The notes below the pieces were generated by a model. The model worked only from the letters and a program-made list of their open reading frames with translations. It ran no database searches and was not told the origin of the DNA. Below are positions 12,481 to 30,651 of a stretch of DNA of 54,244 bases, piece after piece. The stretch is from the NCBI GenBank assembly GCA_964351165.1, contig CAYGNN010000001.1, forward strand, positions 1 through 54,244. The letters run 5' to 3'. Origin of the DNA: an uncultured Phycisphaeraceae bacterium (GTDB taxonomy: Bacteria; Planctomycetota; Phycisphaerae; Phycisphaerales; UBA1924). Made by a program: the position numbers and the translations under genes. Position 1 is the first letter of the stretch. The number at the start of each line of letters is the position of its first letter.

Positions 12481-12502
12481 CTTCAGGATCTGTTCCGGTT
12501 CG

Positions 12503-14667: not shown

Positions 14668-14807
14668 AGTCAGGGAGCGGCATTGGCAGGGAAGAAACGG
14701 TTTATCCGATGACCATGAAGGCTCGATAGTGCAAGGGTAGCGTCTCCGTCTCCCCATGAGCACGAGGCGTCCGCCGCTCCGCGCCCCTCCAAAGTACCAT
14801 CCAACCT

Positions 14808-16004: not shown

Positions 16005-16050
16005 GGACGCCAAAATTACTGGAAGTCCCCGTTCTTCCTGCCGATGATCC

Positions 16051-17571
16051 GTGCTGAGACCGGCCCCGGTCCCAGAACCCACTCCCAGGGCCCCCGGCAG
16101 GGATGACGCCCGTTCAGAGATCGATGCGCCCGCCGTGTTCAACGATGTCACACCCGAAATCCTGGCCGCGATCGTCATCGGGTTCCTGTTCATCCATACA
16201 GCCCTGGTCATCGTCTCCAAGTGGGTGAACCCGCTCTTCGTGATCGTGATGGGGTACATCGCCCTGACACCGATCGCGGTCTCCGAATTCGGCTTCGCGA
16301 ACCTCGCCAAGCTGGGCCGGGTCTACTTCACCGTGCTCCTGCTCATCACCGCGGTCTTCTTCAAGAAAGGCTGGCGGCTGAAACCGACGACCGTCGCGTA
16401 CATGTGTTTCGTCTGCCTGTACGTGCTTGGCGCCCTCTGGAGCGATCAGGTCATCGGCGCCTTCATGTACAAGGGGCTCTACTTCACGCTCGCGCTCGCC
16501 GGCGCTGCGATGGCGGTCGGCGTGGACGGCCCCTGGGACTACCGCAAGGGGATGCGGCTGATGACCATCTCCGCGATCGGGTTCGCCGGGATCATGCTCG
16601 CGGAGCTGGTCCGGAACCCTGCTGCGATCAGCTCCGTCGGACGCTTCCAGCCCTGGGACATCAACCCCAACCGCGTCGCGCAGATCGCTGCGCCGCTGCT
16701 GATCATGTGCGGCTACGTCGCGCTCAACGACCACAACAAGCGCTGGAAGATCGTCGCGTGGAGCACGATGGCGATCCTCTCGATCATCATCATCTACACC
16801 GGCAGCCGCGCCGGGCTCTTCATGTGCTTTATCGGCGTCTCGGTCGCCGCGGTCCCGCTGGTGAAGCGGCCCATCGCGCTGATCGTCTCAGGCCTGCTGA
16901 TCTCAGCGATCGTCTTCGTGGTGATGGCCGTCGTCGATTCAGGCGAGGCCACCGAGCGGCTCTTCACGTTCAACCTGATCGAATCCCGAGAGGGCAAGCT
17001 GCAGGACGCGTTCGAGCTCATCGGCGAGTCCCCGGTCTTCGGGAAGGGCTGGGTCTACGAGATGGTCGGCGCCACCGACAAGGGTTCCACGATGAACCTG
17101 CACAACATGTACATGCAGATCCTCTCGGAGATCGGTTTCTTCGGAGGGCTGGTCTTCGTCGTGGTGATGCTCGTCGCGTTTACCAGAGGCCTGCTGCTGC
17201 TCAAGCTCCTGCGTGAGTCCCGCGGCTACTGCACCGACATCGCGCACCACTGCGTCGGCATGACCCTCGCCGTGCTGGGGCAGGGCGTCTCCGAGTCGTC
17301 CACCATGATGGGCTCGACCGTCAACGGACTGATGCTCACCTTCGGCTTCGGGATGATGGAGCAGACGATCTTCTTCATCAAGAGGGAGCTCGACAACGAG
17401 CAGACCGAGGGCTGGCACGCCTGGGACGAGGGCGGCGACGACTTGTGGGACGACGAAGGCGGCGCGTATCCTGACCCGGACGGCGGGTACAGCGATCACT
17501 CCGGCGGTCATGAGTACGACAACGAGCACACCGACGGCGACGAGCATGATCACGAACTGGCCTACCACTAG
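16051..17571 (+). CDS. O-antigen polymerase/ligase-family membrane protein (Wzy-like)
   Basis: About 10-12 hydrophobic segments. IIIYTGSRAGLFMCFIGVSV resembles the conserved block of the O-antigen ligase/Wzy domain. It is followed immediately by a flippase gene. There is an unusual acidic, His-rich C-terminal tail. The start (GTG 16051) is uncertain. Confidence 0.7.
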   Translation: MLRPAPVPEPTPRAPGRDDARSEIDAPAVFNDVTPEILAAIVIGFLFIHTALVIVSKWVNPLFVIVMGYIALTPIAVSEFGFANLAKLGRVYFTVLLLITAVFFKKGWRLKPTTVAYMCFVCLYVLGALWSDQVIGAFMYKGLYFTLALAGAAMAVGVDGPWDYRKGMRLMTISAIGFAGIMLAELVRNPAAISSVGRFQPWDINPNRVAQIAAPLLIMCGYVALNDHNKRWKIVAWSTMAILSIIIIYTGSRAGLFMCFIGVSVAAVPLVKRPIALIVSGLLISAIVFVVMAVVDSGEATERLFTFNLIESREGKLQDAFELIGESPVFGKGWVYEMVGATDKGSTMNLHNMYMQILSEIGFFGGLVFVVVMLVAFTRGLLLLKLLRESRGYCTDIAHHCVGMTLAVLGQGVSESSTMMGSTVNGLMLTFGFGMMEQTIFFIKRELDNEQTEGWHAWDEGGDDLWDDEGGAYPDPDGGYSDHSGGHEYDNEHTDGDEHDHELAYH

Positions 17572-17588
17572 CAGCGCGACCACCAACC

Positions 17589-19214
17589 ATGGCCAGTGAG
17601 CTCAAACGGCACGCCGTCCGCATCTTCGCCAACTACATCCGCCTGGTTTCCGGGTTCGTCATCGGCATCGCCATGGTCCCGATCCTCCTCCGCTCGACCG
17701 GCGAGGATGGTTTCGGCGTCATCGGCCTGCTCGGCGGCGCGACCGGCATCCTGCTGATCATCCGGGAGGTCGTCACCAACAGCCTCACACGCGAGGTGGG
17801 CGCCGCCTACCACGAGGGCGAGAATTCGTTCCGCGAGACCTACGCCTCCGCGACCGCGCTCTCGATCGGGGTCGGGTTCCTGACCTTCCTGCTCTACCAG
17901 GGGCTCATCTTCGCGCTCCCGCTGCTGAAGATCCCCGACCACCTGATGCACGCCGCCATGTGGATGATCATCATCCAGTCCTTCGAGGTCCTCTTCCGCA
18001 TCGCGACCGCGGCGCAGTTCAACCTGCTCCTGGTGCAGGAACGCTTTATCGCGCACAACATCGCCAACTTCGTGCGGAAGATCGCCGACCTCGCGACCGG
18101 CATCACCGTCCTGCTGACGTACCAGCAGATCAGCCCCAGCGCCGTGCTGATCCTCTACGCGATCGTCGTCTCGGCGCTCAACGTCCTGCTCCAGATCATC
18201 GTGGTCGGATGGCTGTGCTCCGTGGACCGCAGGGCGATCCCCAGGTTCAGGTCCGCCAACAAGACCGCCGGGCGGCGCATCTTCCACACCGCCAAGTGGA
18301 ACATCGCTGTCGCCTGCGCCACGACGCTCCATCTCCGCATCGACGTCATCCTGATGAACCTGCTCTTCGGGATCGTCGGGACCTCGGTGATGGTCGTCGG
18401 CATCCGCCTCACCGGGTACATGCGCCAGCTCGTCTTCGGCATGACCGATGGGCTCGACGCGGTCGCAGTCCGGATCCACCACGAGGGCGGCGCGGACGCC
18501 ATGCGCACGCTCATCCGGCACACCACACGCATCCACGCGATCGTTGTCGTCCCGGCGGCCGCGTTCCTGCTCTGCTTCGCAGAGCCCATCATCCGCGTCT
18601 GGATCACGAGCTCGCTGGATAATCCGGAAGCCTTCATCCGCGACGCCACCCTCGTCATCCAGGCGCTGACCATCGGCTTCGCCTCGCGCGCCATCGCCGA
18701 TTCCTGGATGCACCTCATGTACGGCGCAGGCTTCGTCCGCAAGTACGCGCCGATGATCGCCTTCGGCGCTGCGCTGAACCCGCTGCTTGGTCTCCTGTTC
18801 TACTGGCTGCTGCCGGAGCAGATCCGAATCACGTCGGTCGCCGCAGGCACGAGCGCCGTCTTCTTCGTCGTCCACTTCATCGGCTTGCCCATCATCCTCC
18901 GCCGCACGCTGGGCGTCCCGGTCCGCGAGGCGTACGCCCCGCTCATCCGCCCGACGCTGCTGGTCCTGATCGCGCTCCCCGCCGCGCTCATCTTCCTGTT
19001 CAAGGTCGAGCGCTGGAACATCTGGTGGCTGCTCGCCACGATGGCCACCTTCGGCGCGGTGTACGGCGGGCTGATCCTCTCCTTCGCGATGGACCGGTCC
19101 GAGCGCTCGCTCTTCCTCAACGCGCTGCGCCGCCGCCTGCCGACCTCCATCGGCGGGACCAGGGGCCGCGAGCGGTTCCCCGAGCAATCCCCCGAACAGC
19201 CAGTCGATTCGTAA
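17589..19214 (+). CDS. oligosaccharide flippase (Wzx / MOP-superfamily polysaccharide biosynthesis protein)
   Basis: 541 aa, polytopic (about 12-14 TM segments), with a basic cytoplasmic tail. Its position between the Wzy-like gene and GT genes fits a Wzx. The assignment rests on architecture and context rather than a sharp motif. Confidence 0.7.
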   Translation: MASELKRHAVRIFANYIRLVSGFVIGIAMVPILLRSTGEDGFGVIGLLGGATGILLIIREVVTNSLTREVGAAYHEGENSFRETYASATALSIGVGFLTFLLYQGLIFALPLLKIPDHLMHAAMWMIIIQSFEVLFRIATAAQFNLLLVQERFIAHNIANFVRKIADLATGITVLLTYQQISPSAVLILYAIVVSALNVLLQIIVVGWLCSVDRRAIPRFRSANKTAGRRIFHTAKWNIAVACATTLHLRIDVILMNLLFGIVGTSVMVVGIRLTGYMRQLVFGMTDGLDAVAVRIHHEGGADAMRTLIRHTTRIHAIVVVPAAAFLLCFAEPIIRVWITSSLDNPEAFIRDATLVIQALTIGFASRAIADSWMHLMYGAGFVRKYAPMIAFGAALNPLLGLLFYWLLPEQIRITSVAAGTSAVFFVVHFIGLPIILRRTLGVPVREAYAPLIRPTLLVLIALPAALIFLFKVERWNIWWLLATMATFGAVYGGLILSFAMDRSERSLFLNALRRRLPTSIGGTRGRERFPEQSPEQPVDS

Positions 19215-19230
19215 CCGCGGAGCGCTCCGA

Positions 19231-20412
19231 ATGAACCGCCTCGTCACGCACAACACAGACGGCGTTACTCCAGGCACGCTCCCGCCGCTCCAGCGCGAGC
19301 AGGGGAAAACGCGCATCCTCTTCATCAGCAGCGTGATCCTTGGGTTCAAGCGCTACGCCGAGAGCCTCGAGCGGTTCACCGCAGACCGCGACGACATCGA
19401 CGCGGTCCACGTCCGGATCAGGAACCCCTTCCCGATGCGCGTCGCCTCGATGACCTGGCCGCTCCCCAGAGGGTGGGACTTCCACAGCTACCGCTACCTG
19501 ATGCTCAGCGACTGGTACATCCGCCGCTGGTTCCGCAGCGCGATCGACCCCGACCGCTTCGACCTGATCCACTGGATCACCCAGGGCAACGCCCGACCGA
19601 TCAACGCGATCAAGCGCCGATCCAAAGTCCGCCACGCTGTCAACATCGATACGACCTCGATCCTCGACCTCTCCGAGTACGGCTATTCGCCGCTCGCGCG
19701 CAAGCCGTTCATCCGGGAAGAGCGCCGCATCTTCGACCTCGCGGACGCCGTCGTCTGCAGGAACCATTGGGCGACCCAGTCGCTCCGCGATGATTTCAAC
19801 CTCCCGGAATCGAAGATCATCGCCGCCCCCAACTCGATCGACCTCCCAGAGGCGCACCGATGGGACAATGTCGACCGGGGCGTGCCGCACGACAGCCTCC
19901 CCCGCCTGGTCTTCGTGGGCAACGACTGGGCCCGCAAGGGCGCCGACATGCTCCTGCGTGTTCATCAGCAGCGCTTCGCCGGTCGCGCGGAGCTGCACTT
20001 CATCGGCGATCGCCACGAACGCGACGACAACGCGAAGAACGTCGTCTGGCACGGCAGGCAGGACCACCTCCGCGTGCGCAACGAGCTGCTCCCCTCGATG
20101 GATGTCTTCGTCTTCCCGACCGTCGAGGACATGATGCCCTGGGCAACGATCGAAGCCGCCGGCGCAGGGCTCCCGTCCATCGCCTCCCGCGTCGCCGCGA
20201 TCCCCGATGTCATCCTCCACGAACAGACCGGCCTGCTGCACCCACCCAGGGACGAGCAGGGACTGGCGGACGCGATCGAGACCATGATCGGCGATCCCGC
20301 CCTGCGCGAGCAATACGGCAGAGCGGCCCGCGCGCACATCGAGCAGGGTTTCAACGCGAGCCGGACCTACCCCATGCTGCTCGACCGCCTCTGCGAGATC
20401 GCCGGCGGTTAA
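19231..20412 (+). CDS. glycosyltransferase family 4
   Basis: RLVFVGNDWARKGADMLL...VFVFPTVEDMMPWATIEAAGAGLPSIASRVAAIPDVILHEQTGLL is a GT-B C-terminal domain. Confidence 0.8.
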   Translation: MNRLVTHNTDGVTPGTLPPLQREQGKTRILFISSVILGFKRYAESLERFTADRDDIDAVHVRIRNPFPMRVASMTWPLPRGWDFHSYRYLMLSDWYIRRWFRSAIDPDRFDLIHWITQGNARPINAIKRRSKVRHAVNIDTTSILDLSEYGYSPLARKPFIREERRIFDLADAVVCRNHWATQSLRDDFNLPESKIIAAPNSIDLPEAHRWDNVDRGVPHDSLPRLVFVGNDWARKGADMLLRVHQQRFAGRAELHFIGDRHERDDNAKNVVWHGRQDHLRVRNELLPSMDVFVFPTVEDMMPWATIEAAGAGLPSIASRVAAIPDVILHEQTGLLHPPRDEQGLADAIETMIGDPALREQYGRAARAHIEQGFNASRTYPMLLDRLCEIAGG

Positions 20413-21461
20413 TCCGCAGGCGGAATGACGAGCGGGATGTTCAGATCGATGCGCACGAGCGAGTGATCCCCCCCCTGCACCGGCGCTAAGGTGTGCCAGT
20501 CGCTGACCGTGATCCCATCACTGACGAGCGCATCATCGATCGCAAGCCGAGCAGGCCAGGGCAGACTCCCTGGCCAGGTGCCGTCGAGGGCGAGCAGCGG
20601 CTTGGCGCGGCGCATCCCAGCGACATCGCGCAGCGATCGGCTCCTGGCGCCAGTCGGTGTGGAATTGAAATCCCCGCCGAGCACGATCGGCAATCCCATC
20701 GGCGCCAGCTCGTCCCGGATCATCGCGCCGAGCTGCTTCACCGCCTCGTTCCCGTCCTCCCACGCCTGCTGGCTCCTGGGCGAAGCCGGGTGCGTCGCGA
20801 TCAGGATGAAGTGCCCGCCCGGTCGTCGCACCACCGCGATGCTGGGCGACATCCCTGGGTTCCCATCGCCCGATTCCGCCTGCGTGTAGTGCAGGACGAT
20901 CGGCTCGAGCGGCCACCTGCTGATGACCGCAGGCTTCGCCGCCCAGGGGCGCTGCGGCACGCTGTGGGGGTACCGTTCTCTGAACGCATCGCTGCGCAGC
21001 AGCGTCACCACCTCAGGGTTGGGCTCGACGATCGTCATCACGTCCACGTCCATGCCGTCGAGCAGCGCCACGACCTCAGCGCGGCCGGCGCCCCGGTTGA
21101 AGACGTTCATCGTCAGCATGCGGACCTGCTCGCCGGCCACCGGCGCTGACCCCGGCGCGCGGCCCTGGGTCAGCCCGGCCAGCTGCACAGCCAAAGCCAC
21201 GATCAGGACGACGCCAACAACCCAGCGGCGCAAGGCCAGCGTCAGCGCGAGCATCAACAGGGTGACGAGCAGCAGCTGCGCCGTCAGGTTGGCGATGAGG
21301 TCGATCCGCCATCCAGCTGCGCCGAACATCCAGGCCCCGCTCGCGGCGAGCACGCACAGCCCCAGAACCGCGAGCATCACCGTCAGCGATCGACCGAGAA
21401 TGCGCGCGCGAAGCGAGGCCTTCGTATCGGACGCTGCGTTGTCGTTCGGTGCGTCGGTCAT
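20409..21461 (-). CDS. membrane-anchored endonuclease/exonuclease/phosphatase (EEP) family protein
   Basis: ATG at 21461. Three N-terminal TM segments, then EEP blocks (MLTMNVFN, DVDVMTIVE, LGGDFNSTP, GGDHSLVRIDL). Only the distal 350 codons of the 786-aa track ORF are coding. Its stop overlaps the stop of the convergent GT4 gene. Confidence 0.75.
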   Translation of the reverse strand: MTDAPNDNAASDTKASLRARILGRSLTVMLAVLGLCVLAASGAWMFGAAGWRIDLIANLTAQLLLVTLLMLALTLALRRWVVGVVLIVALAVQLAGLTQGRAPGSAPVAGEQVRMLTMNVFNRGAGRAEVVALLDGMDVDVMTIVEPNPEVVTLLRSDAFRERYPHSVPQRPWAAKPAVISRWPLEPIVLHYTQAESGDGNPGMSPSIAVVRRPGGHFILIATHPASPRSQQAWEDGNEAVKQLGAMIRDELAPMGLPIVLGGDFNSTPTGARSRSLRDVAGMRRAKPLLALDGTWPGSLPWPARLAIDDALVSDGITVSDWHTLAPVQGGDHSLVRIDLNIPLVIPPAD

Positions 21462-21698
21462 TGCGAGAAAAACGTGAGCGAGGATGGGTGCAAGCGGAAA
21501 CCTCAAAGAACAGGGGTTTCGACCGGAGATGCGCCGCGAAAGCGCACCGATCGGCGCCCGAGTCAGGATCGGCCCGGGCCGTGGATCCCCTCCAGATTGC
21601 CCATCGTCAGTCGAAATACAGGGGCCGGACCTGATCCAGGCGCCCATCGATCCGATCCTCACTCTGGACCTGTACGGATACGACGGAGGATCGCTCAA

Positions 21699-22910
21699 AT
21701 GAAGCCGAAGCACAACGTCACCATCGGACTCGCTGTTGGATGCCTGCTGATCGCCGGGACGGCGATGGGGAACTCCAGAGACCGCCGGGGCGACTCCGGC
21801 GCCGGAGACAGCGGCGGCAACAACAACGGCAGCCAGCAGGCGCCGCAGGGCTCCGACTCCACAACGGCGGATCCGATCTACTTCAACGCGCTCACCGGCA
21901 TCCACGCCGGCGATGTCGATCTCTCCGGCGCCCCGGTCTCGGACGAGATCGTCGTGGTCTACCAGCACAACTTCGGGATCTACCCTTACATCAACAGCTC
22001 CGAGGTCCACTTCAACGGGAGTGTCCCGCAGAACATCAACATGCAGGAGCACCTCCGCGAGCTGGCGATCGATATCGAACGCTACATCCCGGACCCCGAT
22101 TTCGACGGCTTCGTCTCCATCGACTACGAGGAATGGCCGCCCTTCTGGGAAGACTGCATGGAGCGCTACCGCGAGTACTCGCGCGAGCTGGTCCGCGAGG
22201 CGAACCCGAGCTGGGACGACCTCAAGGTGGAGCGCAAGGCGAAGCGCGAGTTCGAGAAGGCCGCCAAGAAGTACATGAAGAAGACGCTCAAGAAGTGCCA
22301 GCAGCTCCGCCCCAAGGCGAAGTGGGGGTACTGGGCGTACCCGAAGGAAGCGCACCACGACAACAACGCCAACTGGCTCTGGAACGCCCAGGACGCCTTC
22401 TTCCCCGACCTCTACATGCCGTACCGACTCCGCCCCGATGACGCGACGGACATGATCCTCGGCGAGATCGGCGAGAGCTGGTACATCACCAACCGCCTCG
22501 AAGGCCGCGTTGGGTACGCCAGGGAACTCGCAGGCAACAAGCCGGTCCTCGCCTTCACGTACCCGAGGTACGAGAACCGCAACCCGAACCAGTGGATCCG
22601 CCTGCGGCCGCTCACGCCGTCCGACCTGACGATGTGCATGGAAGGCCCGCTGAACCACGGCGCTGACGGCATCGTGCTCTGGGACAACGTCCCCCAGCCC
22701 TCTGTCGCGGACGCGTTCCAGATCTATTACGACGACATCATCGCGCCAGAATTCAACCGCGTGCTCCAAAGCCGCGGCCTGCCGTTCGGCCCGGCCGATG
22801 GCGTGATCGATCCCGGCGAGAACGACGAGGGTGACTCCGAACCGATCGCCGGTGTCGATGATGATGTCACGGATGTGAACGAGGGCGACGACGTCCGCCG
22901 CGGCGGCTGA
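21699..22910 (+). CDS. secreted glycoside hydrolase family 56 (hyaluronidase/chondroitinase-like) homologue
   Basis: ATG at 21699 with a GGAGGA RBS 8 nt upstream. Signal peptide MKPKHNVTIGLAVGCLLIAGTAMG. Four blocks match GH56 as I recall it from bee-venom hyaluronidase and human HYAL1/PH-20. These are GFVSIDYEEWPPFW (catalytic D-x-E), REFEKAAKKYMKKTLKKCQQLRPKAKWGYWAYP, ANWLWNAQDAFFPDLYMPY and GADGIVLWDN. The C-terminal tail is acidic. Confidence 0.8.
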   Translation: MKPKHNVTIGLAVGCLLIAGTAMGNSRDRRGDSGAGDSGGNNNGSQQAPQGSDSTTADPIYFNALTGIHAGDVDLSGAPVSDEIVVVYQHNFGIYPYINSSEVHFNGSVPQNINMQEHLRELAIDIERYIPDPDFDGFVSIDYEEWPPFWEDCMERYREYSRELVREANPSWDDLKVERKAKREFEKAAKKYMKKTLKKCQQLRPKAKWGYWAYPKEAHHDNNANWLWNAQDAFFPDLYMPYRLRPDDATDMILGEIGESWYITNRLEGRVGYARELAGNKPVLAFTYPRYENRNPNQWIRLRPLTPSDLTMCMEGPLNHGADGIVLWDNVPQPSVADAFQIYYDDIIAPEFNRVLQSRGLPFGPADGVIDPGENDEGDSEPIAGVDDDVTDVNEGDDVRRGG

Positions 22911-22925: not shown

Positions 22926-23930
22926 TCAATCCCTGGCTTCCAACGCAGCCAGACGCTGCGCATACCACGACCATTGCTGCCGGAGGCCCTCCTTGAAGGG
23001 GGTCTCCGGTTTGTAATCCAGCTCGGCGCTGCTCCGCGTCAGATCGGCGTACGTGCGCTCGACATCGCCCATCTGGCTCGGCTGGTGCTCGATGATCGCC
23101 TCCTTGCCGACCGCCTCGGCGACCGACGAGATCATCTCATCGAGCGTGACAGGGCTGCTCCCGCCCAGGTTCCAGACGCGGTAGCCGTGCGCATCGATCC
23201 GGTCCATCGCCGCGAGCACCCCATTGACGATGTCGTCGATGTACGTGTAGTCCCTGCTCGTGTCGCCGTTGCCGAACATCGGGATCGCCTCGCCTGCGTG
23301 GATGAGCCGCATGAATTTCGCGATCGCCAGGTCCGGTCGCTGCCGGGGGCCGAAGACCGTGAAGAACCGCAGGCACGCGACCGGCGTGTTGTAGAGCTGG
23401 TGGTGGACGTGGCACAGGTCCTCCGTCGCGCACTTCGTCGCGGCGTAGGGGCTGATCGGCTTGCTGATGTCGTCCTCCTCGGAGAACGGCACGCGCGAGG
23501 CGTTCCCGTACACGCTGCTCGATGACGCGACGACGAGCCGCTCCGTACCGACCGCGCGCGCTGATTCCAGGATGTTGGTGGTGCCCTCGACGTTGACGCG
23601 CGCATAACCGGCCGGGTCCTCGATGCTCGGCCGGACGCCGGCGCGCGCCGCGAGGTGGATCACGCTCGTCGGGCGGTGCTTCTCGAAGACATCGAGCAGC
23701 GGCGCCTGCTCGCGGATATCGACATGCTCGAACACAAAGCGATCACCATCGCCGGTCGCGCGGACCTCTTCGAGGTTCGAGCGTTTGATCGATTCGTCGT
23801 AGAAGGGATCGAAGTTGTCGATGCCGACAACCCTTGTCTGCGCATCGCGCGCCAGCAGCGCCTCGCAGGTGTGCGAACCGATAAACCCAGCGGCCCCTGT
23901 GACAAGCACGGTCTGTGGTTTGGCGGACAA
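22926..23930 (-). CDS. NAD-dependent epimerase, probable UDP-glucuronate 4-epimerase
   Basis: VLVTGAAGFIGSHTCEALL, VIHLAARAGVRPSIEDP, SSSSVYG, SPYAATKCATE and LRFFTVFGPRQRPDLAIAKF are characteristic of the UDP-GlcA 4-epimerase (Cap1J/LpsL/Gla) subfamily of extended SDRs. Apparent TTG start at 23930. Confidence 0.75.
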   Translation of the reverse strand: MSAKPQTVLVTGAAGFIGSHTCEALLARDAQTRVVGIDNFDPFYDESIKRSNLEEVRATGDGDRFVFEHVDIREQAPLLDVFEKHRPTSVIHLAARAGVRPSIEDPAGYARVNVEGTTNILESARAVGTERLVVASSSSVYGNASRVPFSEEDDISKPISPYAATKCATEDLCHVHHQLYNTPVACLRFFTVFGPRQRPDLAIAKFMRLIHAGEAIPMFGNGDTSRDYTYIDDIVNGVLAAMDRIDAHGYRVWNLGGSSPVTLDEMISSVAEAVGKEAIIEHQPSQMGDVERTYADLTRSSAELDYKPETPFKEGLRQQWSWYAQRLAALEARD

Positions 23931-24204: not shown

Positions 24205-26079
24205 TCAGCCAAATACCAGCGGCGCGAGAAACACGCACACGATCCCGGTGAGGATCACCAGCGGCGCCCCGAATCTGAGGAAATCGAAGGGCTTGTAGCC
24301 GCCCGGTCCCATAACCATGAGATTCGTCTGGTAGCCGATGGGGGTCATGAACCCTGCCGATGCAGCGATCGCGATCACCGCAGCGAACGGCATGAATGGC
24401 CAGTCGGCGCCGGCGCGCCACGCTTCGAGCGCGATCGGGAACATCAGCACCGCCGCGGCGTTGTTCGTGACGACGTTCGTGAAGAGCGCCGTGATCAGGA
24501 ATAGCACACCCAGCACCGCGTACAGCCCCATCGGCTGCGCGACATCCAGCATGATCCCTGCGATCAGCTCCGCCAGTCCAGAACGCTCCATCGCAGCGCC
24601 CAGGCCGAACGCAGCGCCGATCGTCAGGAAGACCTGCCAATCGATCGAGGCGCGCGCCTGCGGCCCGGTGCAGCAGCGCAGCGCGATCATCGCCAGCGCC
24701 GCGATCAGCGCGACGGTCATCGTGTGCGACGAGAAGATCGTCATGCCCAGGATCAACCCGACCAGCACGAGCAGCGCCGCCCACGCCAGGTGGTGCCCCG
24801 GCGCTGCGGAAGAATCGAGCTCGCTGACGAGGTAGAAATCGTTGGAGTCGGCGTGCGCGCTGACGAAGTCGCCCGGCGCTTCCAGCAGCAGCGTGTCGCC
24901 GGCGCGGAGCCGGATGTCGCCCAGCTTGCCGGCGATGCGTTCACCGGAGCGGTGTGCCGCGATCACGACCGCGCCGTACCTGCTGCGGAACTCGCCTTCC
25001 CGGATCGAGATCCCGAGCATCGGCGACGACGACGAGACGACCGCCTCGATGAGCTTCGCGCGGTGGCGGGGGGTCAGCCCCTTGCGAAGCTCCTCGCTGG
25101 TGACCGGCTCGATGCCCTTCATGCGCAGCAGGTCCGCGACGGACTTCACGTTCCCAACGAAGATCAGCACGTCCCCGCCGTGGAGGATGGTGTTGGGATC
25201 CACCGCCAGAATGTGCTCGCCCTCGCGCTCGATCCTGGAGAGGTACAGACCAGGCAGGTGCCGCAGGCCGGCCTGCTCGATGGACTGCCCGCCGATCGAG
25301 GCGTTCTCCGCAACACGGACGGAGGTCATGTACTGCCGGGGGTCCTCGACGCTTGGCATCTGCGATTCGGTGTTGCGCAGCAGTTTCCGCCCCGCCAGCA
25401 GCATGTACGCGACGCCGACGAAGGTCAGCGGGATGCCGATCCACGCGAGCGTGAACATGCCCAGCTGCGGCAGGTCGTACCCCTGCTCGTTGTGCTGCTG
25501 GATCATGCCGTGGACGACCAGGTTCGTGCTGGTGCCGATGAGGGTGCAGGTGCCGCCCAGGATCGCTGCGAAACTCAGCGGCATGAAGAGTCGAGACGCC
25601 TGGATGTTGTTCCGCGCCGCCCAGTCCTTCAGCACCGGCAGGAACATCGCGACGATCGGCGTGTTGTTCATGACGGCGCTGGCGCCGGCGACCGGGAGCA
25701 TGATCCTGGTCTGGGCGCCTGCGGTGGTCTTGGGTCGCCCCAGCCCCCACGCCGTGATGGAGGAGAGCGCGCCGGTGTGCCGCAGCCCAGCAGCGACGAT
25801 GTAGAGCAGGACGACGGTCCAGACCGCAGGGTTGGCGAACCCTGAGATGGCCTCCGCCGTGTCGATCACGCCGAACGCGAGCAGGATGGCGAGCCCGAAG
25901 AGCAGGACCAGGTCCGCGCCGAAACGCCCTGCGCCCAAACCGACGACGATCGCCAGCAGCACACCGCCGGTGATCCAGACGTCCGCGTCACCCCACGATG
26001 GGTCCGACGCAGCAGGCGAAGGCGCCTGCTGCGCGAGCGTCAATGCCTGGCCCTGGATGGTGTTGAAGAGTTGGAGCAT
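24205..26079 (-). CDS. SLC13/DASS-family anion permease with two central TrkA-C (RCK_C) domains
   Basis: 624 aa. Polytopic N- and C-terminal halves with SLC13-like blocks (SAVMNNTPIVAMFLP, FTNVVTNNAAAVLMFPIA) flank two soluble TrkA-C-like repeats (ILHGGDVLIFVG..., LRAGDTLLLEAPGDF). Substrate (sulfate?) is inferred from neighbours only. Confidence 0.8.
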   Translation of the reverse strand: MLQLFNTIQGQALTLAQQAPSPAASDPSWGDADVWITGGVLLAIVVGLGAGRFGADLVLLFGLAILLAFGVIDTAEAISGFANPAVWTVVLLYIVAAGLRHTGALSSITAWGLGRPKTTAGAQTRIMLPVAGASAVMNNTPIVAMFLPVLKDWAARNNIQASRLFMPLSFAAILGGTCTLIGTSTNLVVHGMIQQHNEQGYDLPQLGMFTLAWIGIPLTFVGVAYMLLAGRKLLRNTESQMPSVEDPRQYMTSVRVAENASIGGQSIEQAGLRHLPGLYLSRIEREGEHILAVDPNTILHGGDVLIFVGNVKSVADLLRMKGIEPVTSEELRKGLTPRHRAKLIEAVVSSSSPMLGISIREGEFRSRYGAVVIAAHRSGERIAGKLGDIRLRAGDTLLLEAPGDFVSAHADSNDFYLVSELDSSAAPGHHLAWAALLVLVGLILGMTIFSSHTMTVALIAALAMIALRCCTGPQARASIDWQVFLTIGAAFGLGAAMERSGLAELIAGIMLDVAQPMGLYAVLGVLFLITALFTNVVTNNAAAVLMFPIALEAWRAGADWPFMPFAAVIAIAASAGFMTPIGYQTNLMVMGPGGYKPFDFLRFGAPLVILTGIVCVFLAPLVFG

Positions 26080-26138: not shown

Positions 26139-27164
26139 TCAGTCGGCGTCCAGATCGACCCGCATCCCGAGGGAGTCGATCGCCTCGATGATCGAGCCGT
26201 GGAGGCCCGGGGCTGCACAAACGATGCCCCGGTTCATCTTCAGGGTTGATCCGTGCGAGAAATCGAGCCCGTTGTCGTTGATGTCGCTCACCGGGCGGCC
26301 GGCCTCGGTCGCGATGATCATCCCTGCCGCGTGGTCCCAGATCTTCTCGCGGTAGCCAGGCCTGGTCGGCATCCGGAGGTACGCGTCCGCCTGCCCCCTC
26401 GCGACGACCGCGTACTTGCACTGGCTGTCGAGCCGGACGGAGTCGTACCCATTGGGCGCGATCCGCTCCATGATCTTCGCCGTCGCGTCGTGCTTGGAGT
26501 GCGCCGCCTCGACGGATTCGCACATCCGGATGGGCTCGTTCTCGTCGCGTTCGAGCGGCCTGAGATTGACGCCGGCGTCGTCCGGCTTGTCGGCGCGCTG
26601 CTCCCAGACGCCGGTCCCGCCGTACGCGGAGTACATCGTGCCGACCGGGTCAGGGTCGTCCATCGGTCGCGAGAAATCGGCGGAGAGGTTGGGGCACCCC
26701 AGCACACCCAGCACGACGTGCTCGTGATCGATCCACGCGAGGCTGACGGCGTACTGCTGGCCGCGGAGGAAGCCCTTCGTCCCGTCGATTGGGTCGAGCG
26801 TCCAGAACGATCGCGCCGCGCCGTCGTCGTTGCCGATGTCGATCGCGCCCAGGACATCATCGGTCGTCGCGTCGGTCCACACAGTGCGCACCGCCTCGAC
26901 CACCTCGCGCAGGCGCTCGGCGTTCTCCGGCGTGCGGAGTGAAGCGGAATCCTCTTCCGCGACCAGCCGGAACGGTCCGATCGCCTCCGTCATCCGGTGC
27001 GCGATGACCGCCTGGCTGGCGAAGTCCGCGATGGTGACCGGGCTCCGGTCGTCCTTGGTGATCGAGCGGATGCGCTCGAGGTCCTTCTGGACGACTCGGC
27101 ACACGGTCGAAGCCTCGGCGACCGCCCTGCGTGCGGCGGTCAGCGCGTGATCCAGATCAACCAT
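26139..27164 (-). CDS. cysQ: 3'(2'),5'-bisphosphate nucleotidase (PAP phosphatase, HAL2/CysQ family)
   Basis: ATG at 27164 (MVDLDHALTAARRAV). Inositol-monophosphatase-fold motifs are VAEEDS, FWTLDPIDGTKGF and WDHAAG. The WTLDPIDGTKGFLRG block is typical of the HAL2-type subfamily. The upstream 47 codons of the track ORF are rejected. Confidence 0.85.
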   Translation of the reverse strand: MVDLDHALTAARRAVAEASTVCRVVQKDLERIRSITKDDRSPVTIADFASQAVIAHRMTEAIGPFRLVAEEDSASLRTPENAERLREVVEAVRTVWTDATTDDVLGAIDIGNDDGAARSFWTLDPIDGTKGFLRGQQYAVSLAWIDHEHVVLGVLGCPNLSADFSRPMDDPDPVGTMYSAYGGTGVWEQRADKPDDAGVNLRPLERDENEPIRMCESVEAAHSKHDATAKIMERIAPNGYDSVRLDSQCKYAVVARGQADAYLRMPTRPGYREKIWDHAAGMIIATEAGRPVSDINDNGLDFSHGSTLKMNRGIVCAAPGLHGSIIEAIDSLGMRVDLDAD

Positions 27165-27247
27165 CGGGCGTATCTCCTGCGAGGGCGCGCCGCGGCGTCG
27201 GGCGCCGAACGGCGCGGTGTCGTTCAAGGTGTGTTCGTCGGTCCGCG

Positions 27248-27868
27248 TTACGCGGGGCGGATAGCGCCGGTCTCGACGAGGTAGTCGATGCACGCCTCGA
27301 CGCACTCTTCGAGCGACTTCTCGGCGGTCTTGAGCGTCAGCTCCGCGTTCTTGGGCGCCTCGTACGGATCATCGATCCCTGTGAAGCCCTTGATCTCACC
27401 GGCGCGGGCCTTCTTGTACAGGCCCTTGGGGTCGCGCTCCTCGCACACCTCCAGCGGGGTGTCCACGTACACCTCGACGAAACGCAGGCCGGCGGCCTGG
27501 TGCAGCTCGCGGCTCGCGTCGCGATCGGAGAGGTAGGGGCTGATGAAGCTCGTGAGCGTCACCGCGCCGGAATCGGCGAAGAGCTTGGCGACCTCGCTGA
27601 TGCGGCGGATGTTCTCGGCGCGATCCTCGGCGGAGAAGCCCAGGTTCTTGTTGAGGCCGAAGCGGATGTTGTCGCCGTCGAGGCGGTAGCAGTTGTCGCC
27701 GCGGTTGATCAGCGCCTGCTCGAGGGCGGAGGCGATGGTGCTCTTGCCGCTGGCGCTGAGGCCGGTGAACCACATCGTCAGACCCGTCGTGTTGAGCGCG
27801 GCCCAGCGCTCGTCGCGGGCGATGTCGCCCTCGTGCCAGGTGATGTTCGTCGCTTTCTGCTGGGTCAT
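27248..27868 (-). CDS. cysC: adenylylsulfate (APS) kinase
   Basis: P-loop [42 protein letters not shown] and ISPY blocks are canonical CysC. AGAGGAGA RBS lies 7 nt upstream of the ATG. Confidence 0.95.
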
Positions 27869-28008: not shown

Positions 28009-30573
28009 TCAGCGGCTCTTGCTGAAGACACGCTCCACCCGGCGTTCCGCCCGGCGGCTGCCCATCAGCACCAGCGGGTCGTCCAGCGGGCGGTCCCGGC
28101 TGATCCAGACCAGGCCGCTCAGGTCGTCGCTCGAATCGGCGATCCAGCTCTTCAGCCGCTTGATGGTCTTCGGATCATCAGCGGCGCCCAGCCCGATCTC
28201 GTGCAGCGCCGCGCCGGCCAGCTCGATGTCGTCGTCGGAACCACCGAGCCCGACAAGCTGGTACCCCAGCTCCTGCAGCCGCTCCAGGGATTCCTCGATC
28301 GATTCGGTCGTCGCCTCGTCGGCGCTCTCGTCGTGCGCGTTGATGACGAGCAGGCGGCCGATCACCGGCGCCGCAGGGGGTTCAGGGGTCTGCGCCGAGG
28401 CGAGCAGGGCCTCGCGGACACCGTCGTTGGGCGGCGCTTCGCCGGCGCGGAGCCAGGCCGGCGCCTTGATCGTAAAGGTGTTGCCCTCGTCCTCGACGAA
28501 GGTCAGGACACCCTTGTCCTCGTCGTAGATCCCTGCGTCCTCGAGCGCCTCGACGAGCTGGCCGTGCATCCCGCGGAGGCCGCCCAGTTCCTTGAGGTCG
28601 TCGAAGAGGCGCATCGCGTCCATCGACTCGCCGTTGAGGGTGAGGTTGATCTCGTCCTGCGTCGCCCGGTCGTTCGCGGCGTTCCGCGCGTCCTTGTCGA
28701 TCGCGAGGTTCACAACCGCAGCAGCGCCGCCAACGCACGCGGCGAGGAAGATGAAGAGCGCCACGGCGACGCCGGGGTTGACCTGCTTGTGGCTCTTGTC
28801 GCGCGCGCGCCGCTTGCTGTGGACCTTGTCCCTGGCGGCGTGCGCACGCTTCCGCGCCGCTGCGGCGCGGTTCCTGGCGTTGCGCAGCTGCACGTCCGCC
28901 GAGGGGCGCGAGCCGCGCGGTGTTTCCTTGTTGATCAGCGGTTCGTCGCTGCCCTCGCGCCAGGGGCGCCAGCCGTCAGCGTTGCCCTCGTCATCGACAG
29001 CAGGGCCTGCAGGACCAGCGGGGCTGGCAGGGCGGTCCGGCTTGGGAACGTACGAACCGGTCCACCAGTTCACGAGCGACAGCTTGGGCTTGGCGCGATC
29101 GCCGCTGGGCGATGCGGCAGCAGCGCCGGCTGCGGCCGCAGCAGCAGCAGGGGGGGGGACGGTCTCCGCGGCAGGACGCGCCGCAGGGCGCGGAGGCTCG
29201 GGGACCGCCTTGGGCGCGACCGGCGTGCCTGCAGCGATCGCCACGCTCGCATCGTCCAGCGTCGGGTCGTCGTGCGCCGAGGCATCGACGCCGCCCTTGA
29301 CGCTGGGCAGGTCCGCCGGCATCAGCTTGAACATGTCGTCCGCCGCGAGGACCGCTTCCAGGTCGGCGTACATCTCGTACGAGGACGCGTACCGCTGGTT
29401 GTACTCCGCCATCGAGCGGCGCACGACCCAGCGGATCGCCTCAGGGCAGCGGTTGTTCAGCAGCGACATCCCGCCGTGCGCCGGGAACTGGTTCTCCAGC
29501 AGCGAGTACAGCACGGCGCCTGTCGCATAGACATCAAACTTGGCGCCATCGACCTCGTGGACCTTCACGCCCTTGAGCGCCATGCGCACCATTTCAGGGT
29601 CGCGGAAATACTCAGTGCCGTGCGTGGTGAGCGTCATCGCGCTGCGCAGCGGCGTCACGAGGCCCAGGTCGACCAGGTGCGCCTCGCCATCGGAGACGAT
29701 GATGTTGTCCGGCTTGATGTCCTTGTGCCAGAGCCCGGCGCGGTGGTACGCGGCGATGGTCTTGAGCAGGTCGGAGACGTACCCGATCGCCTCGCGGAGC
29801 TTGGCGTCGTTCAGGCCGTTGCCCTCGGAATCCTCGTGCAGCTTCCGGCCGACCACGCCCAGGCTCTCGCCGGGGACGTAGGGCATGACGTAGTGGAAAC
29901 GGTGCTCGGTCAGCTCGTGCTCGAGGACGAGACCGATCTTCTTCGCCGCTTCGAGCGCGCGGCTCTCGCGGATGATCTGCGGCAGGCTGGAGCCGTCCTT
30001 GAGGCTGAACGACTTGATGATGACCTTGTCGATGCCTGGGGCGCCCTGCCTCGCGAAGACCGCCAGGCGCCGCTCGTCGGGTTCTGCGATGTACAGCTTG
30101 GCGCCGGAGCCGCCTGTTGGCAGCGAGCCGACGATCTTGTATCCCTCGAAGGAGCCGGTCTTGCGCGACGGCTTGTCAGCGCCAGGGACGTGCGCCATCG
30201 CCTGCGGGACGCGCTGCTCGACGCCCTCGAGCATCGGACGCAGCAGCAGCAGGCGCGCCGGGTGCCCCAGGAAGACGCGGTAGAGCGAACGGCCGAAGGC
30301 GTGCATCTCGTCCTGGATGGAGCGGCCGAAGTGCCCTGCGGCGGACCAGCGCCCGATGATGATGTTCAGGATCACGAAGGGGACGAAGACGGCCATCGTG
30401 ATGATCGCGCCCAGCGCGCGGAGCGAGTCCCCGATCACGCCGCCGATGAAGCGGAAGACGTGCGCGAACGCCATCCCGATCAGCTTGAAGGTGGGGGCGA
30501 CGATGAAGACCACGACCACGACCAGCAGCGCGATCGCTGCGGCAGCCGCCAACATTGCAAGGAGGATTGACAT
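28009..30573 (-). CDS. membrane-bound Ser/Thr protein kinase with extracytoplasmic C-terminal domain
   Basis: Three N-terminal TM segments, then Hanks kinase motifs: GSGAKLY with a downstream Lys, [14 protein letters not shown] and [10 protein letters not shown]. These are followed by a Pro/Ala- and Arg-rich linker, one more TM ([20 protein letters not shown]) and a C-terminal domain of about 220 aa with no motif I recognise. Confidence 0.85.
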
Positions 30574-30651
30574 CCCGAAACTCCTGGCCGTCCATCCGAT
30601 CGCGATCTGACCCGAGCGTGTCAGCGGAGGGCGGCGTCGTCCGTGGACCGG

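Follow-up and report, generated by a model that had tools for sequence, protein, structure and literature searches.

A GH56-family glycoside hydrolase in a sulfated-polysaccharide biosynthesis locus of a Phycisphaeraceae bacterium

Introduction

To our knowledge, all biochemically characterised enzymes of glycoside hydrolase family 56 (GH56) are from animals, namely the venom spreading factors, sperm PH-20 and the lysosomal HYALs. A stretch of 54,244 nucleotides from an uncultured Phycisphaeraceae bacterium (hereafter, the window) contains a gene that a sequence-only reading had described as an animal-type GH56 hyaluronidase homologue in a bacterial polysaccharide locus. This raises the questions of whether the protein belongs to GH56, whether the gene is native to the bacterium, and which polymer the protein would act on. 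No characterised prokaryotic GH56 was found in the literature searched (bacteria, Planctomycetes, metagenome, PF01630 and HGT), which yielded dbCAN-type counts only, and none is listed in a 2024 review of microbial hyaluronidases. The family is already known; its prokaryotic variant appears to be new to the characterised literature.

The GH56 Gene and Its Composition

The GH56 gene is located at 21699-22910 on the forward strand, and it encodes a protein of 403 amino acid residues from an ATG start to a stop codon. The proposed ribosome-binding site, GGAGGA, is visible in the sequence at 21685-21690 (+), and 8 nt separate it from the ATG. The first methionine was kept as the start because the N-termini of all eight clade members compared, each short and basic and then hydrophobic, align with it. 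A longer, GTG-started frame from 21474 was rejected, as it overlaps the start of the divergent neighbouring gene and has no support from homologues. The translation contains all four motifs on which the family resemblance had been based, GFVSIDYEEWPPFW, LRPKAKWGYWAYP, NWLWNAQDAFFPDLYMPY and GADGIVLWDN.

The GC3 of the gene (0.90) lies among the values of its neighbours (0.83-0.94), and its codon-usage score is likewise inside their range. Together with the collinearity of the surrounding block in two other Phycisphaerales genomes, this host-like codon usage shows that the gene is native to the bacterium, as had been proposed. Scans for promoters and terminators around the gene gave nothing above chance, and an Rfam scan of the whole window gave no match.

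Family Membership, Fold and Domain Architecture

The protein matched the Pfam family Glyco_hydro_56 (PF01630) with E=2.6e-54 and 184.8 bits, far above the curated cutoff of 23.2 bits, over profile positions 44-305 of 335. When the PDB was searched with phmmer, bee-venom hyaluronidase, PH-20, HYAL1 and Ves v 2 were matched at 1e-26 to 1e-31 (1fcq, 3.5e-31; 9jub, 5e-28; 2pe4, 3.7e-27; 2atm, 3e-26). A profile of eight bacterial relatives matched 1fcq at 7.7e-52 and 2pe4 at 9.6e-51, and the PDB sequence matches that passed the threshold were GH56 structures only. No family was matched in an NCBIfam scan of the protein. In the AlphaFold model the pLDDT of the core was about 90 (mostly 85-98), and the top six Foldseek matches in the PDB were all GH56 structures (E 6.6e-23 to 3.3e-18, probability 1.0, target-normalised TM 0.59-0.74), with HYAL1 (2PE4) first at E=6.6e-23. 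The best match outside the family was the Clostridioides difficile wall protein Cwp19 (E=2.5e-5, TM 0.33, 8% identity). The profile, sequence and structure searches agree, and the D-x-E pair of the family is present, which confirms the protein as a bona fide GH56 homologue with a distorted (beta/alpha) TIM-like barrel.

Four regions were distinguished along the protein, all on the forward strand. A predicted Sec signal peptide occupies residues 1-24 (21699-21770); it was read by eye from the sequence and from homologue N-termini, and consists of MKPKHN, an 18-residue hydrophobic stretch and A-M-G. The basic and hydrophobic architecture is common to the N-termini of eight aligned homologues, which would suit export of the protein via Sec. 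A lipoprotein reading of the sequence AVGC was rejected; a lipobox is unlikely because its Cys is not conserved in this alignment. Residues 25-56 (21771-21866) form a low-complexity linker rich in Gly, Ser, Asp and Asn that is predicted to be disordered (pLDDT <50 over residues 1-56), and the catalytic barrel follows at residues 57-364 (21867-22790). The acidic tail noticed in the sequence-only reading was recovered as residues 365-403 (22791-22907), which are disordered in the model (pLDDT <50). The alignment of the tail with the dockerin region of two paralogues (P0006 and P0007) takes in a DVNxGDD-type loop; the tail is possibly a decayed dockerin.

The closest solved relative in sequence is the GH56 prototype, bee-venom hyaluronidase Api m 2 (1FCQ/1FCV), with which the protein shares the barrel (Foldseek E=4.5e-22, target-normalised TM 0.70) at about 28% identity. 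The disordered linker near the N-terminus and the acidic tail are additions relative to Api m 2. A shorter segment stands in place of the ~45 N-terminal residues of the bee enzyme, and the bee Cys189-Cys201 loop (16-18 residues) is deleted. The missing EGF-like domain had been put forward as a difference from the animal enzymes. None was found in a Pfam domain search of the protein, so the absence stands; it makes no difference from the insect venom enzymes, however, since 1FCQ, like the window protein, is a single domain without an EGF-like module. In human HYAL1 and PH-20, an EGF-like domain at the C-terminus, several disulfides and N-glycans are present. All of these are missing from the window protein, in which no cysteine is conserved, so that folding in a bacterial host is to be expected.

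Catalytic and Substrate-Positioning Residues

The residues expected to form the -1 subsite were compared with those of the bee enzyme by alignment to 1fcq. Asp142-Tyr143-Glu144 (codons 22122-22130, +, calculated from the ORF start) aligns with bee Asp111-Phe-Glu113, for which the HYAL1 equivalents are Asp129 and Glu131; the motif reads DYEEW in the window protein and DWEAW or DWEEW in HYAL1 and PH-20 (SPAM1, 9JUB). In the model, the three residues lie at the C-terminal end of the strand formed by residues 138-142. Tyr239 and Trp328 correspond to bee Tyr227 and Trp301, both of which position the acetamido group. Among 145 aligned family members, Asp142 was conserved in 144, Glu144 in all 145, Tyr239 in 140 and Trp328 in 131, the remainder at the last position being mostly alignment gaps. 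Arg204 and Trp209 of the catalytic set are also conserved in the window protein. The alignment thus shows conservation of the -1 subsite, and its register with the secondary structure would place the active-site residues in the substrate cleft.

At the D-x-E pair and the substrate-positioning Tyr and Trp residues, the bee enzyme is thus matched by Asp142, Glu144, Tyr239 and Trp328; the exception is bee Tyr184, which is replaced by another aromatic residue, Trp212. Within the prokaryotic clade described below, this position is Tyr in 35 sequences, Phe in 17 and Trp in 11. The Arg that follows the DxExW motif in 50 of 71 animal-like sequences (bee Arg116) is Pro147 in the window protein. Owing to these two replacements, hyaluronan is not implied as the substrate, and the activity could differ from that of the animal enzymes or be lost.

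The latter bears on a non-hydrolytic role, in which the protein would be a transglycosylase or remodeller that rebuilds exopolysaccharide (EPS) chains, or would bind glycans as a catalytically dead protein. According to the review of microbial hyaluronidases, animal GH56 enzymes transglycosylate. The replacement of Tyr184 by Trp212 and the missing Arg could alter how far such an enzyme hydrolyses or transfers. No sequence feature specifically favours transfer over hydrolysis, however, and a dead enzyme is argued against by the conservation of the complete set of Asp142, Glu144, Tyr239, Trp328, Arg204 and Trp209. A non-hydrolytic role was therefore considered very unlikely.

Relatives and Origin of the Gene

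Word-index protein searches with the single sequence and with a 32-sequence profile returned 11 proteins, which give no taxonomic census. Given this small number, an exhaustive HMMER search was needed to reveal the extent of the prokaryotic family: at least 64 clusters at 50% identity were present among the top 150 matches. GH56 clusters number ~1100 in all. The window protein belongs to a deep, diverse and low-cysteine prokaryotic radiation of GH56, in which the named members are from Phycisphaerales or Planctomycetota MAGs; this taxonomy rests on few Planctomycetota and Phycisphaerales labels and on a GTDB scan with patterns specific to the query subclade. Some of the prokaryotic relatives are already labelled hyaluronoglucosaminidase by JGI.

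In a neighbour-joining tree of 145 domains, the window protein did not group with the animal sequences. It fell in a prokaryote-type clade, within subclades supported at 93% and 98.5%, and this clade was split from the animal-like and pilin-signal clades with 75% bootstrap, a value that is indicative only, as the tree was built by a distance method with no outgroup. Mean identity inside the prokaryotic clade was 33%, and the median number of cysteines per domain was 3, versus 7 for the animal-like domains. No cysteine position is shared by eight aligned clade members, and the disulfides of the animal subgroup (bee Cys22-Cys313 and Cys189-Cys201) have no counterpart in the window protein. The label 'animal-type' is an overstatement, as the protein sits in a deep prokaryotic radiation.

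Eukaryotic contamination, or very recent acquisition from an animal, might be suspected from the purely animal record of characterised enzymes, and one database relative, in a sturgeon assembly, is flagged UNVERIFIED_CONTAM. Both had been dismissed in the sequence-only reading, rightly so: the codon usage is host-like, the bacterial block is collinear in three genomes, the gene has a bacterial ribosome-binding site and a predicted bacterial signal peptide, and its clade is split from the animal-like one. Contamination or recent transfer is refuted by these results and retains next to no probability.

The existence of the deep prokaryotic radiation, with phage-borne and archaeal-type copies, reopens the question of where the animal hyaluronidases came from. 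It may be speculated that GH56 is not an animal invention, that the radiation (Planctomycetota, an archaeal-looking lineage and at least one phage) represents a dedicated turnover enzyme of sulfated, glycosaminoglycan (GAG)-like EPS with uronate and HexNAc, and that the metazoan hyaluronidases descend from it by ancient horizontal transfer. This scenario is unlikely. If it were true, planctomycetes would have a matched toolkit for synthesis, sulfation and hydrolysis of a GAG-like matrix older than, or parallel to, the extracellular matrix of animals.

The Surrounding Polysaccharide Locus

The GH56 gene is flanked by two genes on the reverse strand. The divergent one (20409-21482, -) encodes a membrane-anchored phosphoesterase of the endonuclease/exonuclease/phosphatase (EEP) family (PF03372, E=1.7e-14) for which no sequence relative was found in the PDB. 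The other (22926-23930, -) encodes an SDR epimerase (PF01370, E=1.3e-61). Its closest functionally named relatives in the PDB are the UDP-glucuronate 4-epimerases 6zl6 (1.4e-56) and MoeE5 (8.8e-51), in agreement with the earlier assignment of this neighbour.

Upstream lies an assembly core (13399-20412) that is collinear in two Phycisphaerales MAGs (L001 and L002). By Pfam, it contains three GT4 glycosyltransferases (13399-14763, -; 14808-16004, +; 19231-20412, +) and a Wzy-type polymerase (16051-17571, +); a 541-residue multi-TM Wzx-like protein (17589-19214, +) was recognised by its strongly hydrophobic, polytopic-looking sequence and had no Pfam match. Genes for precursors and decoration were assigned by Pfam and NCBIfam at 3-13522: an ATP-sulfurylase fragment, a GDP-mannose dehydratase, a GDP-fucose synthase-like protein, an SDR, a GT4, two hexapeptide acyltransferases, a 497-residue unknown protein, a GT2, a GDSL esterase and two FkbM methyltransferases, in addition to a sulfotransferase at 5440-6357 (-). 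The glycosyltransferases of the locus thus comprise one GT2 and four GT4s. Beyond the epimerase, a DASS/CitMHS anion transporter with TrkA_C domains, assigned to sulfate supply (24205-26079, -; Pfam), and a 3'(2'),5'-bisphosphate nucleotidase (PAP phosphatase; 26139-27305, -; Pfam, and TIGR01330 with 290.2 bits against a cutoff of 267) were found. Both genes are conserved in L001 and L002; L010 and L011 likewise have the phosphatase.

With the sulfotransferase, ATP-sulfurylase fragment, DASS-type transporter, PAP phosphatase, GT4s and Wzy all present, the proposal of a sulfated-glycan locus held. The locus is biosynthetic, not catabolic: it is a Wzx/Wzy sulfated-polysaccharide cluster, and no sulfatase, GH88, GH2, GH20, PL8 or other lyase, SusCD or sugar-acid catabolic gene was found in the 54-kb window. 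No dedicated HexNAc-nucleotide gene is present in the locus; beta-HexNAc in the polymer is assumed to derive from housekeeping UDP-GlcNAc.

Recurrence of GH56 in Biosynthetic Loci

About 12 of 16 independent GH56 contexts were Wzx/Wzy polysaccharide-biosynthesis loci, most of them with sulfation genes, so that the linkage of GH56 to EPS biosynthesis is recurrent. Loci with Wzy, Wzx and GT4 genes comprised the window, L001, L002, the P0018 contig, and L010, L011, L015, L016, L018 and L019, in the last six of which GH56 adjoins Wzy, GT4, sulfotransferase and epimerase genes. The GH56 identity in linked loci drops to 30-37%. The divergent EEP/GH56 pair was found in L001, L002, L005, L006, L010, L011 and L016, and in the same seven contigs an epimerase orthologue (56-77% identity) adjoins GH56; the shorter L005 and L006 hold this triad. 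The module of membrane phosphoesterase (-), GH56 (+) and UDP-GlcA-4-epimerase-like gene (-) recurs down to about 31% GH56 identity (L006).

The collinear block that the window shares with L001 and L002 runs from the GDSL gene to a FapA-like gene. Within this block, the GH56 proteins share 57% and 48% identity, respectively, versus 70-85% for most neighbours; values as low or lower were seen only for its EEP partner (55% and 52%) and, within L002, for Wzy and the Wzx-like protein. The copy number also varies, with a tandem triplication in L011 and a duplication in L018. An enzyme that keeps pace with a variable glycan is expected to show such fast divergence and copy-number change. The family is not restricted to EPS loci, since two homologues occur in housekeeping contexts (L009 and L013) and a paralogue with a dockerin (L003/L004) is not in an EPS locus.

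These contexts bear on a foraging role, in which a secreted hyaluronidase or chondroitinase would degrade exogenous GAGs or algal or animal sulfated glycans and its position in an EPS locus would be incidental. The characterised GH56 enzymes all degrade hyaluronan or chondroitin, planctomycetes are known degraders of sulfated glycans, and the dockerin-bearing paralogues P0006 and P0007 (L003/L004) resemble secreted, anchored degradative enzymes. In a preprint, GH56 is counted among the expanded degradative CAZymes of soil Acidobacteria. Against this stand the lack of catabolic genes in the window, the predominance of biosynthetic contexts with a conserved divergent partner and epimerase, and the absence of both the animal Arg after DxExW and the bee Cys189-Cys201 loop. 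Foraging is accordingly regarded as unlikely.

Proposed Role in Polymer Processing

Secreted enzymes encoded in the biosynthetic cluster of their own polymer are known from ExoK (GH16) and ExsH of Sinorhizobium meliloti succinoglycan, PslG (GH39), BcsZ (GH8) and AlgL (PL5), and ExoK is part of a Wzx/Wzy-dependent pathway, as would be the window protein. The GH56 gene likewise lies inside, and is conserved with, a cluster for an exported polysaccharide, and the likeness would extend to a secreted endo-glycanase that cleaves the polymer of its cluster. These enzymes differ from GH56 in family, fold and mechanism, and GH56 needs a 2-acetamido sugar at subsite -1.

We infer, with a probability of about 0.62, that the protein is secreted and, as a retaining endo-beta-N-acetylhexosaminidase, processes the sulfated HexNAc/uronate EPS of its own locus. 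The earlier idea that the enzyme processes a self-polymer is strengthened by the recurrence in such loci. Glu144 would act as the general acid/base, as in the animal enzymes, and the 2-acetamido group of the substrate itself would serve as nucleophile, with Asp142, Tyr239 and Trp328 keeping it in place; such substrate-assisted chemistry would make the enzyme a retaining one. The protein would be Sec-exported and independent of disulfides, with its signal peptide, flexible linker, (beta/alpha) barrel and acidic tail. Its substrate would be a sulfated HexNAc/uronate heteropolysaccharide made by the surrounding Wzx/Wzy locus, and not host hyaluronan; the polymer is probably also fucosylated and either O-methylated or O-acetylated. 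GH56 may trim or release the nascent polymer in the periplasm or at the cell surface, possibly in cooperation with the divergently transcribed EEP phosphoesterase, and the outcome may be chain-length control, clearance of mis-exported polymer or dispersal. That the protein is exported and active, that the polymer is of this kind and that GH56 processes it are all deduced from the comparisons above.

The recurrent placement of GH56 predicts that some Phycisphaerae make a GAG-like sulfated matrix polymer with beta-HexNAc, and that GH56 is its processing enzyme; the setting differs from that of Api m 2, a venom spreading factor. PH-20, in recombinant form, is in wide use as an excipient for drug delivery and has to be expressed in eukaryotic cells. 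A native bacterial branch with neither the animal disulfides nor the EGF-like domain represents an unexplored part of this medically and commercially important family.

A Homologue on a Phage Genome and the Cell Wall as a Possible Substrate

One GH56 homologue (P0043, L012) sits on a phage genome. It has 343 residues and an N-terminal signal anchor as in a SAR endolysin, and its gene lies outside any tail module. An IMG/VR scan gave one weak match with 20% identity (L014); a tblastn search of INPHARED with the phage homologue gave no match, BFVD contained no GH56-like fold, and PHROGs had no family for it.

The small, signal-anchored phage protein suits a peptidoglycan beta-N-acetylglucosaminidase, which would open the sacculus locally for polysaccharide export or act as an autolysin or endolysin, with substrate-assisted cleavage of GlcNAc-beta-1,4-MurNAc. 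Peptidoglycan offers beta-1,4-linked GlcNAc, and the best structural match outside GH56 is a wall protein, Cwp19. That match is weak, however (TM and identity as above), and the small ORFs that flank the phage gene lack transmembrane segments, so that no holin-like membrane ORF lies beside it. In the window protein, no LysM, SPOR or PG_binding domain was detected. Few genes of the block diverge as fast as GH56, which also varies in copy number, whereas peptidoglycan is conserved; the linkage of GH56 is to Wzy, glycosyltransferase and sulfotransferase genes, not to cell-wall genes. A cell-wall substrate was judged quite unlikely.

A phage-borne GH56 also fits a bacterial surface glycan as the substrate, in line with the preferred reading of an EPS-processing enzyme. 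HylP (PL16), the hyaluronidase of streptococcal phages, is a lyase with a triple-stranded beta-helix that forms part of the tail fibre. It is a phage-borne enzyme directed against a GAG-like bacterial capsule, and the phage GH56 may act analogously; P0043, by contrast, is of GH56 hydrolase type, small and signal-anchored.

The GH56 gene and its product

The GH56 gene (21699-22910, +) starts with ATG and runs for 403 codons before its stop, and a GGAGGA ribosome-binding site, as claimed in the sequence-only reading, was read at 21685-21690 (+), 8 nt before the ATG. The four motif blocks reported there were all found in the translation, with D142-Y143-E144 at codons 22122-22130. The protein matched PF01630 with 184.8 bits (E=2.6e-54; gathering cutoff, 23.2), while no model matched in the NCBIfam scan. 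When PDB sequences were searched by phmmer, the only significant matches were four GH56 enzymes, namely bee-venom hyaluronidase (1fcq, 3.5e-31), PH-20 (9jub, 5e-28), HYAL1 (2pe4, 3.7e-27) and Ves v 2 (2atm, 3e-26), and a profile of eight bacterial relatives improved the E-values to 7.7e-52 (1fcq) and 9.6e-51 (2pe4). The GH56 likeness is real. All of the membership tests that were run placed the protein in GH56; the conserved disulfides, the EGF-like domain and the phylogenetic grouping of the animal subgroup were not found for it.

The fold is that of GH56. In an AlphaFold2 model (input alignment, 11 sequences), the pLDDT of residues 57-364 was mostly 85-98, and residues 1-56 (signal peptide and Gly/Ser/Asp/Asn linker) and 365-403 (acidic tail) were disordered. 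As shown by Foldseek, the six best PDB matches were all GH56 enzymes (E 6.6e-23 to 3.3e-18, probability 1.0, TM to target ≤0.74), and the seventh was the distant Cwp19 of C. difficile (E=2.5e-5, TM 0.33).

Residue equivalences were counted along the HMMER alignment to 1fcq. D111, E113, Y227, W301 and Y55 of the bee enzyme correspond to D142, E144, Y239, W328 and Y88, and Y184 and R116 correspond to W212 and P147. Conservation was scored in 145 alignable domains, taken from the top matches of an exhaustive HMMER search of 1.84 billion representatives. E144 was present in all 145 domains, D142 in 144, Y239 in 140 and W328 in 131 (the remainder mostly gaps), and R204 and W209 were close to invariant. 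At position 147, 50 of 71 animal-like sequences have Arg, which does not predominate among the prokaryotic ones; at position 212, Tyr occurs in 69/71 animal-like sequences, whereas the prokaryotic clade has Y (35), F (17) or W (11). The 16-18-residue loop of the bee enzyme with its C189-C201 disulfide is deleted in the window protein, and its close relatives have zero conserved cysteines. Since the -1-subsite residues are kept, the machinery of substrate-assisted catalysis is conserved, although the distal and plus subsites differ. Judging from the alignment and its position at the end of strand 138-142 of the model, the D-x-E pair would lie in the cleft. The protein is probably exported via Sec, and the conserved residues suggest a retaining endo-beta-N-acetylhexosaminidase, in which E144 would be the acid/base and the substrate acetamido group, positioned by D142, Y239 and W328, the nucleophile. 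That it is a transglycosylase or a dead enzyme seems very unlikely.

A native gene of a prokaryotic GH56 branch

The gene has a GC3 of 0.90 (neighbours, 0.83-0.94) and in codon usage scores mid-range for its locus, so the host-like codon usage noted earlier was borne out. Contamination was excluded, as had been proposed, and so was a recent animal origin; contamination or recent transfer is a refuted explanation with virtually no probability left.

In a GTDB scan (one genome per species), eight related loci were found, seven in Phycisphaerales/Phycisphaeraceae MAGs and one in an unclassified "bacterium", and two MAGs held two GH56 paralogues each. A word-index protein search gave only seven non-self bacterial clusters, followed by animal sequences, and the exhaustive HMMER search gave 1129 clusters at E≤1e-3, 695 at ≤1e-10 and 65 at ≤1e-30. 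Of the 145 domains, 64 fell in low-cysteine clades with Ala-rich bacterial signal peptides, whose named members are Planctomycetota or Phycisphaerales MAGs (two clusters carry the JGI label "hyaluronoglucosaminidase"); 10 formed one clade with archaeal-pilin-like signal peptides, and 71 were animal-like and cysteine-rich. In an NJ tree (200 bootstrap replicates), the window protein grouped with its EPS-locus orthologues at 93%, and with these plus the dockerin paralogues and P0012 at 98.5%. The bacterial clades were split from the animal-like and pilin-signal clades at 75%, in a tree that is unrooted, from a sample biased towards the query, and so gives no direction for an ancient transfer. 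Mean identity was lower in the bacterial group (33%) than in the sampled animal-like group (37%).

A literature search for a characterised prokaryotic GH56 enzyme found none. In a 2024 review of microbial hyaluronan-degrading enzymes, GH56 comprises only enzymes of mammals and venoms (PMC11669647); in a paper on planctomycete genomics, the family is named solely as absent (PMC5352709); and the 29 characterised GH56 enzymes of ez-CAZy are all single-domain (PMC12229491). GH56 in soil Acidobacteria was counted by dbCAN in a preprint (10.1101/2021.04.09.439258), and bacterial sequences are already in the databases, mostly unnamed, so their mere existence is not new. What is new is that the prokaryotic branch is deep and diverse, that it occurs repeatedly in sulfated-exopolysaccharide (EPS) biosynthesis loci with an EEP (endonuclease/exonuclease/phosphatase-family) phosphoesterase gene and a UDP-GlcA-4-epimerase-like gene, and that it extends to a phage and an archaeal-type lineage.

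NCBI has flagged P0031 (NCBI MGH0188091.1), a 654-aa relative from a sturgeon (Acipenser sinensis) assembly, as UNVERIFIED_CONTAM, perhaps over-cautiously, since P0031 is rich in Cys and has a DWEEW motif, as do the animal-like sequences.

The polysaccharide locus and its counterparts

The sulfated-glycan locus of the sequence-only reading was recovered by Pfam and NCBIfam as a single Wzx/Wzy-type polysaccharide locus from 1 to about 27300. It contains, in order, an ATP-sulfurylase fragment, a GDP-mannose 4,6-dehydratase, a GDP-fucose-synthase-like protein, an SDR, a GT4, a sulfotransferase, two hexapeptide acyltransferases, a 497-aa protein, a GT2, a GDSL esterase, two FkbM methyltransferases, two GT4s, Wzy, a 541-aa multi-TM Wzx-like protein, a GT4, the membrane-anchored EEP phosphoesterase (-), GH56 (+), an SDR epimerase (-), a DASS/CitMHS anion transporter and a HAL2-type PAP phosphatase. 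The epimerase had been called a UDP-GlcA 4-epimerase, and its closest functionally named solved relatives are indeed UDP-glucuronate 4-epimerases (B. cereus 6zl6, 1.4e-56; MoeE5, 8.8e-51). Its top PDB match, 5u4q (3.1e-71), was deposited as a dTDP-glucose dehydratase and is much nearer to it than genuine RmlB entries (about 1e-32).

In tblastn of window proteins, L001 and L002, contigs of other genomes, proved collinear with the window over the stretch that runs from the GDSL gene to the FapA-like gene. GH56 ranks with the least conserved genes of this block: its identity is 57% (L001) and 48% (L002), and that of most neighbours is 70-85%. Equal or lower values occur only for the EEP gene (55%, 52%) and, in L002, for Wzy and the Wzx-like gene. 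L005 and L006 also have the triad EEP(-)/GH56(+)/epimerase(-) (GH56 identity, 35% and 31%). L010 carries GT4s, ATP-sulfurylase, GT4, Wzy(-), EEP(-), GH56(+), AsnB-like, epimerase(-) and PAP phosphatase; L011 carries two GT4s, Wzy(-), EEP(-), three tandem GH56 copies (L011:6708-10408), AsnB-like and epimerase(-); L015 carries acyltransferase, two GT4s, Wzy(-) and GH56(+); and L016 carries ATP-sulfurylase, GT4, sulfotransferase, Wzy(-), an unknown, EEP(-), GH56(+), GT4, sulfotransferase and epimerase(-). L018 has GMD, Wzx (Polysacc_synt) and two tandem GH56 copies (L018:8001-11543), the P0018 contig has GH56, a 542-aa unknown and a sulfotransferase, and L019 has GT4, acyltransferase, several sulfotransferases, CDP-glycerol genes, GT4, sulfotransferase, GH56, Wzy and GT4. 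The tandem copies, both in EPS-type loci, suggest diversification of specificity. EPS-biosynthesis loci make up about 12 of 16 independent GH56 contexts; the exceptions are L009 and L013 (housekeeping), the dockerin paralogue of L003/L004, the phage contig L012 and the archaeal-type contig L017, and the context of L007/L008, where a 22%-identical GH56 adjoins a Wzy_C protein and GH15, is ambiguous.

Pfam and NCBIfam scans detected no sulfatase, lyase, GH88, GH20 or uptake system in the locus, which is biosynthetic rather than catabolic. A foraging hyaluronidase or chondroitinase would be chemically plausible and is favoured by the dockerin paralogues, but this context and the absent catabolic partners make it unlikely. 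These paralogues (L003:2084-3415, L004:9863-11140) are the second GH56 of two Phycisphaerales MAGs and end in a type-I dockerin; that of L004 adjoins an FG-GAP-repeat protein, and the L003 arrangement is similar. The acidic tail of the window protein (22791-22907), which can be aligned to the calcium loops of the dockerin, may have decayed from one.

We infer that the substrate is the sulfated HexNAc/uronate polymer made by the locus, which GH56 would trim, release or recycle on the model of ExoK/ExsH. These enzymes process succinoglycan, which is also Wzx/Wzy-dependent, and PslG, BcsZ and AlgL act likewise in other systems. The rapid divergence and tandem amplification of GH56 fit an enzyme co-evolving with a variable glycan.

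Phage and archaeal-type homologues

P0043 (L012:8001-9032; ENA ERZ27309396 k141_251720, a 56.7-kb contig) is a 343-aa GH56 homologue with an N-terminal signal anchor in a phage genome. On one side of its gene is a replication module (helicase, DNA polymerase, pyrophosphatase), and on the other a head module (portal, protease, major head). Its role may be that of an EPS depolymerase or of an endolysin-like enzyme; no GH56 was found in PHROGs, INPHARED phages or BFVD. Hints of a peptidoglycan N-acetylglucosaminidase come from this small signal-anchored homologue and from the weak likeness to Cwp19, but we regard this role as quite improbable for the window protein, given that no holin-like ORFs lie by the phage gene, that a peptidoglycan-binding domain is missing and that the conservation is unlike that typical of wall enzymes.

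P0065 (L017:8001-9599; GCA_964578845.1, contig CAZOEF010000002.1) forms a separate clade with P0089, P0095 and P0147, all with archaeal class-III (pilin-like) signal peptides. Its neighbours are archaeal-type (HVO_A0261_N, YGR210-like GTPase), and it lies two small genes upstream of a protein of >4664 aa with Laminin_G_3 repeats.

Other features of the window

The EEP phosphoesterase (20409-21482, -) has three predicted TM helices and PF03372, and at least seven loci have its gene and GH56 as a divergent pair; neither PDB sequences nor NCBIfam gave a match to it. Speculatively, it may cut a phosphodiester in the polymer or in a lipid-linked precursor. The intergenic region (21483-21698) shares several conserved blocks with that of L001, including GGTGCAAGCG, TCAGGATCGGC and CAGATTGCC, possibly a shared regulatory site; neither a sigma-70-like promoter nor an Rfam match was found in it.

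The 497-aa protein (7593-9086, +) could be assigned to no family and has only a sub-threshold Pectate_lyase22 match, and the 541-aa polytopic protein (17589-19214, +) was taken as a Wzx-type flippase, with no Pfam flippase-family match. The PAP phosphatase (26139-27305, -) passes the TIGR01330 equivalog (HAL2, yeast/plant-type; 290 bits, cutoff 267) rather than the bacterial CysQ model, and it also adjoins the EPS locus in L001, L002, L010 and L011. An 854-aa Ser/Thr protein kinase and an ECF-type sigma factor (28009-31626, -) directly follow the EPS/sulfate genes and, from this position, collinear in L001/L002, are candidate regulators of the locus. A bacterial protein (36461-38104, +) has all three domains of the GH3 family, that of the plant auxin-amido synthetase/JAR1-like acyl-acid amido synthetases.
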